DNA from: a virus
Taxonomy: Duplodnaviria; Caudoviricetes
DNA length: 64,000 bases
Virus record (IMG/VR): IMGVR_UViG_3300028603_000038
Coordinates: 6,096 to 70,095 of that record
Strand: one strand, 5' to 3'
Within the stretch, counting starts at the first letter, position 1. Every line of letters starts with the position of its first letter. The notes beneath the pieces were generated by a model that saw only the letters and a list, made by a program, of their open reading frames with translations, made no database searches and was not told where the DNA came from. The position numbers were made by a program, and so were the translations under genes. Below, piece after piece: positions 6,063 through 64,000 of the stretch.

Positions 6063-6743
6063 ATGCTTGATTTCACCTTAACCAGATATTCCGATTCTCG
6101 CCAATTTCCTGTTGCAACGGGTTCTTTGATTACTGCCGAAGGTCAATGTCTTGTTAATGACCTGACTGATGGTGTACGCAAAGTTAAACCTTCTACTGGT
6201 ACTGCTGCTGATGTATTTGCTGGCGTTTCTGTTGGCCAACAAATTACCATCACTGCTTTTCCGGGTTTTGAAAGTGCAGTAATTGGTGCAACCTATACTC
6301 TGAAACGCACTCCTATCAGCGGCCAAATTTTGGTAACTGCTAACGGTGTTGCTCTTACTGCTACTGCTGGTGCTCCGGCTAGCGGCGAGTATTCTATTAC
6401 TGATGCAACAATTACTTTTAACGTTGCGCAAGCTGGTGAAGCACTGCAAGTTGTTTATCGTTATGTTCCTACCACTGTAGAAGCAAAACAAATTCAGGGT
6501 GACGAACCTGCTGGTGGTGCTGCTTGTTTGGCTATTGACCAAATCGGCGTTATTACTCGCGGCGTAGTTGCTACTACTGAATTTAATGCTGCTGACGCGT
6601 GGACCGCATCGTCTGCTGTTAAGACTGGTGCAAATGGTTTGTTCTCTGTTTCTGGTAACGGTACTGCTGTTCCGGGCACTATTGAACAACTGCCGGACGG
6701 TGATTCTCCGTTCTTGGTAATTTCCATTAACGCTAATCCGTAA
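6063..6743 (+). CDS. Putative head decoration/cement protein (start refined to ATG 6063)
   Basis: Lies between scaffold and capsid genes; G/A/T/V-rich beta-type sequence; GGAG SD before ATG 6063, in frame with the track ORF 6006. Confidence 0.55.
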   Translation: MLDFTLTRYSDSRQFPVATGSLITAEGQCLVNDLTDGVRKVKPSTGTAADVFAGVSVGQQITITAFPGFESAVIGATYTLKRTPISGQILVTANGVALTATAGAPASGEYSITDATITFNVAQAGEALQVVYRYVPTTVEAKQIQGDEPAGGAACLAIDQIGVITRGVVATTEFNAADAWTASSAVKTGANGLFSVSGNGTAVPGTIEQLPDGDSPFLVISINANP

Positions 6744-60446: not shown

Positions 60447-60462
60447 TATTTCCGGTTGAAAA

Positions 60463-60472
60463 CTGTAAAGTG
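60463..60472 (+). promoter_or_regulatory. Promoter-like motif A upstream of the helicase N-half
   Basis: CTGTAAAGTG after a terminator and 25 nt before the ATG. Confidence 0.65.
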
Positions 60473-60497
60473 TGTTATCGAACAGTAGAGAATATTC

Positions 60498-61553
60498 ATG
60501 ACTGACATAATTGTAAAAGACCGTATCTATATAAGAAAAGATTTAGTAGACCGTAGTGAATTAAAACGTATCTATGTGCATCAAGCTTACAAGGAAGACT
60601 CTTGCCAAAAGTGTCCTTCATTAGAAGACCGGCACTCTCACGTGTGTGATGAATGTCCTGCTTACTTAGGTCTTTACGAACTGTACAACAAAAAGAAATT
60701 CAAAGATAAAACCTACTATGGTATTTCTTTAGGCAAACGCGGCGAGTATAAAGAAGTACTCAAAGACAAAGTTAAGAAGAAAAAGCTTGAAGTAAAAGAC
60801 CTTCGTTGTAACGCGAAGATGAAGCACAAAATTAAGTTTACTGGTACTTTAACTAAGCAGCAAATTAAACCCGTAAACACTATGACTAAAAAAGACTACG
60901 GTATTTTAGAATCTCCGGCTCGTTCAGGTAAGACGGTGATGATGACCGCTGTAGCTATCAATAAGGGAAAACGTACTTTAGTACTTGCTGCACAAACGGA
61001 CTGGCTTTCTGGTTTTTACGAAACAATATGTGGGTCAAAAACTCAGAAGGCTTTAACTAACGTACCTAAACTTGAAAAGAAATACGGGTATCCGATTTGT
61101 GTGTTTGCAAAGAAGTATGAAGACTTCGTTAACCCAAACCATGATATTGTTTTGGTTACTTACCAAACGTTCCTTTCTAAGCGAGGCCAAAAGCTTTTAA
61201 AGAAAATAGTTGGAACCTTTGGTACTATAATGGTAGACGAATGTTTAAGTGGGGATACCAAAGTAGCTACTGGGTTTAATGGAGAATGGGAATACTTAAA
61301 AACTCTATATTCTGAACCTAGCAAACATAAAGTGTTATCCTACAATCATTCCACCAAAGAGAGAGAGTTAAAATCTATATTAGGGGTTAGTACTACTGAG
61401 AAGAAAACCTACTATGAAATTGAACTAGAAGACGGTAGTATTTTTAAATGCTCCGCTATGCATGAATTCTGGTCTAATACAAGAAACGAATATGTTATGG
61501 CCTGTGATCTTCAAGTCGGTGAAGACTTCATGACTTTAGACAACTCCGTATAA
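60498..61553 (+). CDS. SF2 (UvsW/ResIII-like) helicase N-half fused to split intein N-fragment
   Basis: SPARSGKT Walker A, LVTYQT and MVDE (first half of Walker B), followed immediately by intein block A CLSGDT. Confidence 0.92.
   Translation: MTDIIVKDRIYIRKDLVDRSELKRIYVHQAYKEDSCQKCPSLEDRHSHVCDECPAYLGLYELYNKKKFKDKTYYGISLGKRGEYKEVLKDKVKKKKLEVKDLRCNAKMKHKIKFTGTLTKQQIKPVNTMTKKDYGILESPARSGKTVMMTAVAINKGKRTLVLAAQTDWLSGFYETICGSKTQKALTNVPKLEKKYGYPICVFAKKYEDFVNPNHDIVLVTYQTFLSKRGQKLLKKIVGTFGTIMVDECLSGDTKVATGFNGEWEYLKTLYSEPSKHKVLSYNHSTKERELKSILGVSTTEKKTYYEIELEDGSIFKCSAMHEFWSNTRNEYVMACDLQVGEDFMTLDNSV
61242..61550 (+). mobile_element. Split intein N-fragment (IntN, 103 aa)
   Basis: Cys1 in CLSGDTKV, VLSYN, YEIELEDG and block B CSAMHEFW; ends VMACDLQVGEDF, then stop. 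Confidence 0.93.
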
Positions 61554-62650
61554 GTGTGTCTCCACCATTTTTTAGGTAACCGTATGCGTTTACCATTATT
61601 GCTCATTACTAATACTTTATATTTGTATCCTTGTTTGATTGCAGCTCTTCTTTTCTTCACTAGAAGGTAAAAAAGTTCTGAGGGCTTTCCATAATATTTA
61701 ATCCCTGTTTTTTGCATACCCATCGTTACCAAAGACTTAACTTCTACAAGTGTGTTGCTCGTAGGTATGTAGAAATCAGGATAATGTTTCTTGTTACCGT
61801 TATGTTTGAAATGTATAACTGGAACTTTACCGCTGGAATTTTCAACTATCTCTTTCAATTTAATTTTCTTTCTATTAACTAAATATTCTAGTGCTTGTGG
61901 CTCAAACCCCATTAAGTTAAAGCTACGACCTTTTAGTTTAACATTCTTATATTTAGATACTTTGTTGCAGTTAGGGCAACCTTTCTGACAGCTAACTTTC
62001 CTTAAAACGTTGTCACCTCTCATTACTTTTTCATACCCGCATTTAGTGCAAGTGTGTATAGCAGGTAAAGAAATGCCTACCCACTGTACATTGCGTTTAA
62101 CCGCAAAAGGTATTTTCATTTCTCGTAGTTTTTTGTTATACCTAGCTTTAGTCCACTTTATATTGTTACATGAACACTTTGAACACCCATACAAGTTTTT
62201 CTTAATTCTTCGTTCTACATAATTTGAGTCGATAGTGTAAAGTGACTTGCACACTAAACAAGTGTGTTTTACAGGCGTCATTGTATTTAAAAAATTCCCC
62301 AGAGGTTTTAAACCTGCTTTTTTGCACAAAGCTTCGTATTGTTTTTGAGAATACTTGGCATTCTTTGACTTTATTCCACGTCTTAATTTTCGTTGTGTGA
62401 GTCCTGCCTTTTGGGCTGCCAATTTACGTTGGCAATTAGGGCAAAATTTCTCGTGCTTTAATTTTATTTTCTTGTCTAGGTCTTTTACTTTTTTAACAAA
62501 TTCTGTTTTGCACGTAATGCATAATAAATTTACTTTTTCCTCTCTAGTTATATATTCGTTACTTTTTAAAAGTCTAACTTCTGGGTAATAAGTTTTCAAT
62601 TGTTTTTTGAATTCTGTCGCTTTCACATATTTATAATTCATATCGTACAC
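61511..62650 (-). mobile_element. Free-standing homing endonuclease-like gene, zinc-ribbon repeats plus PD-(D/E)XK domain
   Basis: Six CxxC pairs in repeated units; C-terminal HYPDFYIPTSNTLVEVKS; sits antisense between the intein halves. Confidence 0.8.
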
Positions 62651-62690
62651 CCAACGTCATATCAACCTACTAAAATTAGTGAGATGCAAA

Positions 62691-62813
62691 ATGAAAGTTA
62701 AAAGTATTAAACGGGTAGACTGTAATATCAATCTATATGATATATCTGTTGAGGGTAATAACAATTTTTTTGCTTCTCCTGAAGGTTCAGATAAATTCTC
62801 ACTTACCCATAAC
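62691..62813 (+). mobile_element. Split intein C-fragment (IntC, about 41 aa)
   Basis: MKVKSIKRV, block F YDISVEGNNNFFA and block G THN followed by Cys+1. Confidence 0.93.
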
Positions 62814-63653
62814 TGCGATATGGTTCCTGCTGATAGATTCGTTAGCATCATCAACTCTTTCGAGTCTAAAGTGCGACAAGGTTGCACAGGTACAACCGAC
62901 AGAAAAGACGGTAAATACTTTCTTGTCGATCATGTCATTGGCCCTATTAAAGCTAAAACCAAAATCGAAACGCTTACACCTACTGTAGAGTTTATTGAAA
63001 CAGGTATAAAAATTTCGCATGAATATAAAGTATTGGCTTACGCTTACCGAGCATTGGAACAGCATAAGGCAAGAAACAGGGTAATTCTTGAATGGATTAA
63101 ACATGACTTGAAGCAAGGGCATTCTATTGTTATTCCAGTTGCTACTGTTAAGCAGTGTTTGAAATTGACTGACATGGTTAACAAAGCAATGAAGGAAGAC
63201 GTAGCGGTTGCATTTACAGCGGCTAAAATTAAAAACAAAAAACAACGCGATCAATTAATCCAAGATTTGCGCAATCGTAGATACACTGTAGCAATTGGTA
63301 TTCGCAGAATTTTGCAGCGTGGTATTAACGTCCCTACGTGGTCTGCTTTGTACGAAGTAACTCCTATTAGTAACGTACCTAATCAAACTCAGGAAACTGC
63401 GCGTATCCGAACTAAAATGGAAGGTAAGTTAGACCCGGTAGTCCGTCACTTCCTAGACGATTTTGGTTTTGCTAGAGGTTGTTTGCGAACGTCTTTGTTC
63501 CGCGTTTATATTCCTCAGAAATTCAAGATTAGTAAACAAAACTTCGACATATCTAAAAAGTATACGAAGCAAGGTGTAGTAACCAACAGACAAACAATGT
63601 TACCGGGAAAGACTAATAAAGTTAAAACCCGCAAACGATCATTAGACTGGTGA
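62691..63653 (+). CDS. Split intein C-fragment fused to helicase C-half (track start GTG 62679; ATG 62691 preferred)
   Basis: After HN comes CDMVPADRF, completing Walker B; then GCTGTTDRKDG motif III, RGINVP motif V and QETARIR motif VI. Confidence 0.92.
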   Translation: MKVKSIKRVDCNINLYDISVEGNNNFFASPEGSDKFSLTHNCDMVPADRFVSIINSFESKVRQGCTGTTDRKDGKYFLVDHVIGPIKAKTKIETLTPTVEFIETGIKISHEYKVLAYAYRALEQHKARNRVILEWIKHDLKQGHSIVIPVATVKQCLKLTDMVNKAMKEDVAVAFTAAKIKNKKQRDQLIQDLRNRRYTVAIGIRRILQRGINVPTWSALYEVTPISNVPNQTQETARIRTKMEGKLDPVVRHFLDDFGFARGCLRTSLFRVYIPQKFKISKQNFDISKKYTKQGVVTNRQTMLPGKTNKVKTRKRSLDW

Positions 63654-63657
63654 CCTT

Positions 63658-63912
63658 ATGTTTCAAACTAAAGTAGTGGTAAAGAAAGTATCAAAGGACA
63701 CTTATACAGCGTTGTCTCTAAATACAATGCAATGTGCGACAGGTATTTCAGAAAAAGACGCATTAAAAGAATTGGAATTAAAACTGAAAAATTGTAGTAA
63801 TTTTAATACTGCTCCTTTCTTTTACCACGCTTTGTACCTATTTGGGGTACTTACTTATAATTTGTTTAATATTAAGTCGCATTCTATTTGGTACGAAACG
63901 GTGGACGAATGA
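63658..63912 (+). CDS. Hypothetical protein (84 aa)
   Basis: Coupled ORF. Confidence 0.55.
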   Translation: MFQTKVVVKKVSKDTYTALSLNTMQCATGISEKDALKELELKLKNCSNFNTAPFFYHALYLFGVLTYNLFNIKSHSIWYETVDE

Positions 63913-64000
63913 AACTTAAACTCAAGGAAAAGGACGTTGAATTAGCCCGTCGTTTCGGTATGCCGCAAGCAATAGAAACCTGCGCGCCTTTTTCTATTGA
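63909..64000 (+). CDS. Partial ORF truncated by the window end
   Basis: ATGA overlap with the previous stop; MKLKLKEKDVELARRFG... stays open to the end of the window. Confidence 0.5.
   Translation, partial: MKLKLKEKDVELARRFGMPQAIETCAPFSI

Follow-up and report, generated by a model that had tools for sequence, protein, structure and literature searches.

A putative mobile split-intein cassette with an inverted nuclease gene in a phage helicase

Fractured genes were defined by Dassa et al. (2009; PMC2677866) from 26 loci in eight enzyme types, and the same study presents the split inteins gp41-1, gp41-8, NrdJ-1, IMPDH-1 and NrdA-2. In those loci all three open reading frames (ORFs) lie on one strand with a spacer of 27-51 nucleotides (nt), and the nucleases are GIY-YIG or Vsr-like (EDxHD) enzymes. 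Antisense or out-of-frame homing endonucleases in inteins have been described as well (Gorbalenya 1998 and Gogarten 2002, as cited in bioRxiv 10.1101/2025.01.02.630785), and inteins in Walker B motifs and in superfamily 2 (SF2) helicases are already known in general. Here we analyze a locus at positions 60498-63653 of a 64,000-nt stretch of DNA, referred to below as the window, that corresponds to positions 6,096 to 70,095 of the IMG/VR record IMGVR_UViG_3300028603_000038 and belongs to an uncultured phage of 184.6 kilobases (kb). A helicase gene in the replication module of this phage is interrupted by two intein halves and an antisense nuclease gene. With a probability of roughly 0.8 we read this arrangement as a mobile fractured-gene cassette in an SF2 helicase, in which the split intein joins both halves into one protein.

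The interrupted helicase gene and its intein halves

The features of the locus are as follows, with a slash marking the border between extein and intein here and in the text.

60498-61553, plus strand: N gene, 351 amino acids (aa), ending in ...VDE/C followed by IntN, the N-terminal intein half
60498-61241, plus strand: N-extein, 248 aa, with a four-Cys zinc finger, Walker A (PARSGKT) and motif II up to ...GTIMVDE
61242-61553, plus strand: IntN, 103 aa, from Cys1 (residue 249, nt 61242) to the stop codon (61551-61553)
61511-62650, minus strand: nuclease ORF, 379 aa, free-standing and homing-endonuclease-like
62669-62681, plus strand: 13-nt motif ACTAAAATTAGTG, within the 40-nt divergent spacer and just 5' of the IntC start
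62691-62813, plus strand: IntC, the C-terminal intein half, 41 aa from the ATG (45 aa from the GTG at 62679), with terminal HN at 62813
62691 (ATG) or 62679 (GTG) to 63653, plus strand: C gene, IntC followed by the C-extein
62814-63653, plus strand: C-extein, 279 aa, with the +1 Cys (TGC, 62814-62816) and the stop codon (63651-63653)

The two parts of the helicase are separate ORFs, with a stop codon at 61551-61553 after IntN, a start codon of its own before IntC and an antisense ORF of 1137 nt between them. For the C gene the ATG at 62691, which is preceded by a Shine-Dalgarno-like GTGAG box, is the more likely start when compared to the GTG at 62679. An earlier reading of the same DNA without database searches, the sequence-only reading, had given coordinates for the N- and C-half, and all of them hold as evidenced both by the ORF listing and by direct reading of the letters.

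By its motifs (Walker A, DExD/H, motif III and the RecA2 motifs) the host protein is an SF2 helicase of the ResIII or XPB-UvsW-like kind. The N-half matches Pfam ResIII with 28.5 bits (cut-off 22.5), and its residues C36, C39, C50, C53, R142, G144, K145, D247 and E248 are unchanged across 26 N-halves. The C-extein begins with Cys and DMVPADRF, contains the remainder of the DExD box, motif III (TGT), RKDG and the RecA2 motifs, and matches phrog_16 and phrog_9690, both 'DNA helicase'. Pfam Helicase_C scores 20.9 bits on the C-half, under its cut-off of 23.5, and passes in the orthologues P0081, P0137 and P0149. The nearest solved relatives of the helicase are archaeal XPB proteins (E=1e-15 over motifs II-III). 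Note that the NCBIfam equivalog model for XPB, NF045503, gave 59 bits for the orthologue P0002 against a cut-off of 610, and the XPB likeness of the helicase appears only in the region of motifs II-III.

The exteins, joined in a script, yield a protein of 527 aa that shows no gap at the junction when compared to uninterrupted orthologues, namely Pseudomonas phage PaBG gp210 (531 aa, with FVDE-VHSS at the junction) and the metagenomic proteins P0002-P0004 (526-528 aa). At the junction the spliced product would read ...VDE-CDMV..., and the native IDE-CDL of P0002 and P0003 is the same DECD box that is predicted for it. The cassette interrupts the DExD box at a precise point, after the Glu and ahead of its third residue. 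According to the sequence-only reading the Walker B motif would exist only after splicing, and this requires some correction. Splicing would indeed restore the last two residues of the DExD box and the link to motifs III-VI, but the N-extein already contains the Asp as well as the Glu of motif II, so that the intein splits the DExD box after the Glu and not the whole of Walker B.

In IntN we find block A (CLSGDT), block B (CSAMHEFWS) and an acidic tail, with a net charge of -6, and the NCBIfam model intein_Nterm matches residues 249-324 with 35.0 bits (cut-off 24.5). Cys249, the Cys1 of the intein, is invariant in 26 N-half clusters and the block-B residue His322 is nearly so. IntC opens with the basic strand KVKSIKR, continues with block F (LYDISVEGNNNFF) and ends in block G (LTHN), after which comes the +1 Cys; it matches intein_Cterm with 16.9 bits (cut-off 15.6); the HN/C junction is present in seven out of seven IntCs compared, the one in the window and six others. 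Pfam Intein_splicing gives weak matches on both halves. As the curated intein models pass their cut-offs, the intein assignment is not a matter of chance, and judged by its residues the class-1 set is complete, with Cys1, block-B His, block-F Asp, His-Asn and Cys+1. Two details of the earlier description have to be modified. IntC had been called basic, but its net charge is 0 from the ATG or +2 from the GTG, and only the first strand KVKSIKR is basic. An insertion, SPEGSDKF, is present as described; it is however not peculiar to this copy, as it occurs in all six IntCs of the helicase family that were compared and is missing only in that of Bacillus phage G.

The structure of the complex was predicted with five extein residues left on IntN, for which a 26-row alignment was used, and seven left on IntC. 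As evidenced by an interaction prediction score from aligned errors (ipSAE) of 0.80 in three runs, with 0.00 for the best of three controls, association of the halves in a single HINT fold is predicted; this mark is attained by 58 of 80 solved complexes and by 2 of 110 mismatched pairs. The runs share at least 93% of their contacts, and the predicted local distance difference test (pLDDT) of the partners is at least 77. The most confident contacts are made by IntC residues 3-9 (KVKSIKR) with IntN residues 305-310 (YEIEL), so that the model pairs the acidic strand YEIELED of IntN with the basic KVKSIKR of IntC, and every one of the 41 IntC residues is in the predicted interface. Note that split inteins are already among the solved structures. 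The docking pass thus expresses likeness to them rather than binding or splicing of this particular copy, and it may in part reflect a memory of these structures.

The antisense nuclease gene and the mobility of the cassette

The nuclease gene runs against the two helicase halves, its 3' end overlapping the 3' end of IntN by 43 nt and its start lying 40 nt from the ATG of the C gene. Its product shows three CxxC...CxxC zinc-ribbon repeats followed by a C-terminal PD-(D/E)xK domain (YPDF...VEVKS), and it matches the Pfam family DUF7487 with 34.4 bits (cut-off 27) as well as phrog_15137, 'endonuclease'. In the nuclease domain the residues E25, P66, D67, E78, V79, K80 and S81 do not vary among 8 relatives. 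A model of this domain with an 8-row alignment reached a pLDDT of 89.8; an AlphaFold model of the complete nuclease from its sequence alone, with a pLDDT of 35, was useless. The best structural matches of the domain all have a restriction-endonuclease-like fold; they are headed by TnsA (Z 7.9) and Vsr (Z 7.8), and behind these come the homing endonuclease I-Bth0305I (Z 6.1), Hjc and tRNA-splicing endonucleases. A Foldseek search against the PDB returned nothing at E≤0.001, the weak rows being PD-(D/E)xK nucleases, and the Pfam scan gave no GIY-YIG or Vsr match on the nuclease. The Z scores are middling, but motif and fold agree, and from sequence and model we assign the nuclease to the canonical PD-(D/E)xK enzymes and not to the Vsr-like EDxHD type. 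Matches to L33 in a phmmer search against PDB sequences were rejected as a zinc-ribbon chance similarity only.

Relatives are few, with 5 for the nuclease and 7 for IntC in a word-based homologue search. Orthologues of the nuclease are found antisense at the equivalent position in the contigs L006 and L007, in Yersinia phage fHe-Yen9-02 and, unannotated, in Dickeya phage JA33. The literature searched, which was not exhaustive, offered no description of DUF7487. A paralogue of 472 aa is encoded on the same phage outside the window (L008:3086-4504, minus strand, equal to G000 C1:140085-141503), with 28.5% identity over 242 aa, and carries a C-terminal RuvC-like domain (DUF7487 55.6 bits; RuvC 23.4 bits against a cut-off of 22.2). 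The 9-mer AAATTAGTG is located directly upstream of both the start of this paralogue and the C-half.

The 13-nt motif ACTAAAATTAGTG in the divergent spacer has been conserved in the window, L006 and L007, each time 5' of the C-half, and the phage contig has a single copy of it; it is a candidate for a ribosome-binding site, a promoter or a leader of the nuclease gene. The N gene is preceded on its 5' side by a terminator-like hairpin and by one of the TGTAAAGTG boxes of the phage, a promoter-like element of which there are 18 copies on the 184.6-kb contig. One exact copy, at 62236-62244, is the only one within the cassette on the plus strand; it lies inside the nuclease gene and faces the C-half. 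As it is 455 nt away from the ATG of the C-half and is missing from L007 and from the L006 cassette, we do not claim it as a promoter of the C-half.

The cassette as a whole has a length of 1572 nt (61242-62813) and comprises IntN, the antisense nuclease gene and IntC. The contig L006, from another public sample, matches the window over 9 kb with an identity of about 96%. Its alignment to the window stops at 61241 and restarts at 62817, and a GCT codon for Ala replaces the cassette together with the TGC (DE-A-D). The same joint from 61241 to 62817 with GCT in between is found in a contig from a compost metagenome, which has 1556 extra letters at 62909/62911. L006 carries a different cassette of IntN, antisense DUF7487 nuclease and IntC at a second position (site b) 32 codons, or 96 base pairs (bp), downstream of the empty one (site a), where the insertion follows RKD and a Gly is changed to the +1 Cys. 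When L006 is compared to the window, the IntNs are about 25% and the nucleases about 24% identical, the exteins 97%, and we take the cassettes at site a and site b to be old and independent. Between the exteins there are 36 synonymous and 9 nonsynonymous codon differences, which places both halves under purifying selection. Of the 50 mismatches between these exteins, 11 are concentrated in a segment of 34 nt at site a, and another four are no farther than 15 nt from site b. Co-conversion of the flanking sequence in the course of homing would produce such a clustering, as would divergence of the target site.

The existence of a near-identical phage with an empty site marks the cassette as a mobile unit and not as an assembly artefact or an RNA intron. 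In addition, a landfill sample from a different study yielded three identical short contigs within the cassette, one of them crossing the HN/C junction (62741-62891). The assembly artefact that the sequence-only reading had raised as a concern is thus excluded by independent contigs with pieces or the layout of the cassette, and the contiguous and intein-less alleles for which it had suggested a search both turned up in relatives.

Two observations concern site b. A manure metagenome contains a contig with the site-a IntN (61298-61504, with 3 differences in 207 nt) and another one, from 62911 onward, whose loose end is the tail of a site-b IntC. Both alleles thus co-occur in this sample, or possibly one genome has both sites occupied; among the sequences found, none has both, and the two pieces from manure are on separate short contigs. 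Gaps in the cover of the stretch in runs X2, X3 and X7 (X7 being the manure run) were not counted as absence. The split intein at site b of L006 (L006:6841-8395) has a Glu at the position of the usual block-B His (CTEDELFW), a residue that all other copies compared retain, and it may follow a variant splicing mechanism or be impaired.

Occurrence in other phages

An exhaustive HMMER search with Walker B plus IntN as the query, run against 1.84 billion representatives of 50%-identity clusters, gave 325 matches at E≤0.001, and the following classes refer to the best 150 of these. Split forms, defined by an end no more than 20 residues past the end of the IntN match, account for 97 clusters. In 54 clusters the split has the junction DE/C, and at least 25 of those 54 carry the zinc finger and Walker A of the helicase family in the window, while a split at RKD/C or two residues later is found in 16. 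A further 18 clusters are contiguous at DE/C. These include the mini-intein P0081, P0149 with a LAGLIDADG domain and the larger P0137, of which P0081 and P0137 are from the same helicase family as the protein in the window. With a contiguous mini-intein, an endonuclease-bearing intein and split forms all at DE/C, three stages of the Dassa model coexist at one site. The sequence-only view that natural examples are few does not apply here, as the DE/C site is heavily populated in metagenomes and is also present, unrecognized, in phages in GenBank.

When the phage collection was searched by blastn with the 3.2-kb region, no match was obtained, and tblastn with IntN alone retrieved only 4 phage records at E≤1e-3. 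Deposited genomes with the DE/C split are those of Yersinia phage fHe-Yen9-02 (OR620964), Vibrio phage vB_VcorM_GR11A (MT366761) and Bacillus phage G gp221/gp223 (JN638751), where the proteins carry no annotation beyond 'DNA helicase' or 'hypothetical protein'; no paper in the literature searched treats them as split inteins. All three share with the window the insertion after the motif II Glu, the IntN/IntC family and the +1 Cys; their IntNs are 28-35% identical to that in the window.

Yersinia phage fHe-Yen9-02 has, like the window, an antisense orthologue of the DUF7487 nuclease, 32% identical over the aligned part, and contig L007 shows the same DE/C layout with an antisense nuclease. Vibrio phage GR11A (L004:1401-5580) differs in that its antisense nuclease is Vsr-like (FEFHGDCWHG) and in an extra large contiguous intein in Walker A (SGK/C...VHN/T); the annotation lists its N gene as a hypothetical protein of 779 aa. 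In Bacillus phage G (L005:2871-5503) it is another SF2 helicase that is split at the same DE/C point, with a 73-aa sense ORF, gp222, in the gap and an extension of about 100 aa before IntC in gp223. The Dickeya phages JA11 and JA33 and the contig L006 have an orthologue of the helicase and a cassette of the same kind (IntN, antisense DUF7487 nuclease, IntC and +1 Cys), but at the RKD/C site 32 codons downstream, and the cassette is long diverged. In the JA33 record (MH460462; L002:5105-6180) the annotated helicase halves are separated by a gap of 1 kb that contains an unannotated antisense ORF of the zinc-ribbon PD-(D/E)xK family (YIPDLF...IEVKS).

A second, contiguous intein (...INYA/CLTGDT) was observed just past the 3' end of the window at G000 C1:50504-53710 on the minus strand. 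The gene encodes more than 1000 aa and lies a few genes downstream of the helicase; it has relatives at L006:12226-13137 and L007:9897-12966, whose products match Intein_splicing, LAGLIDADG_3 and MJ0330_N.

Proposed mechanism, alternatives and comparison with known fractured genes

We propose that the two helicase halves would be translated separately and that IntN, through its acidic strand YEIELED, and IntC, through its basic strand KVKSIKR, would dock to form one HINT fold. Class-1 chemistry could then proceed with Cys1, the block-B His, the block-F Asp, the terminal His-Asn and Cys+1, by which the exteins would be ligated to a helicase of 527 aa and the intein halves released. The antisense nuclease would cut intein-less alleles in co-infecting relatives, and repair of the cut allele by recombination would copy in the cassette with a short flank, amounting to homing. 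Trans-splicing itself as well as the activity and the target of the nuclease we infer from the sequence; the homing function is indicated indirectly, by the presence/absence polymorphism and by the cluster of mismatches at the insertion site. The proposal of the sequence-only reading, a naturally split intein in a fractured helicase gene, is borne out by the catalytic residues, the colinearity of the exteins, the empty allele, the predicted docking, the lack of an intron match and the independent contigs. It had further envisaged a post-translational switch on replication, for which nothing in the analysis speaks.

Several points weigh against such a mechanism. The closest solved relative of IntN is the gp41-1 intein with an E-value of 0.024 only, and as the likeness to characterized split inteins is this weak, activity is not inferable by homology to a tested pair. 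Block B reads SAMH, with a Ser in place of the usual Thr of TxxH, although the His is kept. The helicase must accept a Cys where the sister phage has an Ala, turning DEAD into DECD; yet P0002 natively has DECD. The structural matches of the nuclease domain are middling, with Z below 8. On the side of expression, co-transcription of the halves would run for 1.1 kb against the antisense nuclease gene, scans for sigma-70 promoters and terminators gave matches no more frequent than in shuffles, and among the RNA runs checked for this stretch none contained it.

The alternative that survives best, unlikely as we consider it, is that the intein halves are splicing-dead and serve only as non-covalent docking domains for the helicase fragments. 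A precedent exists in Aeromonas phage Aeh1, whose fragmented NrdA is reportedly assembled through interaction domains derived from a mobile element (PMC3045599). The complex model likewise supports docking and not chemistry, and with site b of L006 there is a relative without the block-B His. Against this stands the retention of all catalytic residues in the window, with Cys1 invariant and the block-B His nearly so in 26 clusters and HN/C in all IntCs, which a pure docking role would not call for.

It is more improbable still that a selfish nuclease gene disrupted the helicase gene when it inserted and that what is left is a decaying pseudogene, its function lost or supplied elsewhere. The phage does have other helicases, such as a DnaB-like gene that in relatives is located two genes downstream, and tblastn detected a weak second ResIII-like match on the contig. 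Both halves are however intact ORFs in which all helicase motifs are kept, the codon differences to the 96%-identical relative are predominantly synonymous (36 against 9), and the split form is found in at least 54 clusters and in several cultured phages. Least probable is removal of the interruption at the RNA level, by a group I or II intron with an endonuclease, or an assembly artefact, for although phage genes are often interrupted by endonuclease-carrying introns and only one long contig, which is from run X1 and may itself be the source, spans the whole stretch, the insert is bounded exactly by the in-frame intein blocks A and G, identical pieces (one of them over the HN/C junction) were recovered in a second study, the same layout is seen in independent genomes, and no Rfam family, intron or other, matched at E≤1 from 60458 to 64000, an interval that contains the complete insert.

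A trans-splicing cassette in the helicase would add the SF2 helicase and the DE/x position of motif II to the natural hosts and sites of split inteins. The locus shows that the endonuclease of a fractured gene can be encoded in reverse orientation and overlap the tail of the intein, with consequences for expression via antisense transcription, and it would connect DUF7487, a domain of unknown function, with homing. The sister phage, with its empty site and a different cassette 96 bp away, constitutes a natural experiment on homing, co-conversion and interference between neighboring inteins. More tentatively, the antisense zinc-ribbon PD-(D/E)xK proteins of DUF7487 might be a homing family, undescribed in the literature searched, that mobilizes whole split-intein cassettes, and the two long-diverged cassettes 32 codons apart might compete and be mutually exclusive, because homing at one site would co-convert the other. 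If so, they would provide a natural two-allele system for intein interference and at least two mutually orthogonal split-intein pairs. The split pair in the window is a candidate orthogonal ligation tool, as it is distant from gp41-1, NrdJ-1 and DnaE; its value would depend on kinetics.

With the fractured genes of Dassa et al. (PMC2677866) the locus shares the complementary charges on the interface strands, the break between blocks B and F, and gene-control elements that were apparently imported with the cassette. It differs from them in three respects. The nuclease gene is antisense and overlaps the IntN tail by 43 nt, whereas their ORFs are all on the same strand; the nuclease is a zinc-ribbon canonical PD-(D/E)xK protein of DUF7487 instead of a GIY-YIG or Vsr-like enzyme; and the host, an SF2 helicase, is absent from their eight enzyme types. 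Sequence similarity to gp41-1 is marginal (E=0.024). The inteins of Gorbalenya 1998 and Gogarten 2002 are, in the account of the preprint cited above, contiguous and contain LAGLIDADG or Vsr-like nucleases, while the one in the window is split and associated with a PD-(D/E)xK zinc-ribbon protein. A search of the literature, again not exhaustive, retrieved no description of this helicase split intein or of an antisense nuclease within a split intein. The fractured-gene layout is known, and what is new are the host protein, the insertion site, the inverted, overlapping nuclease and the family to which this nuclease belongs.

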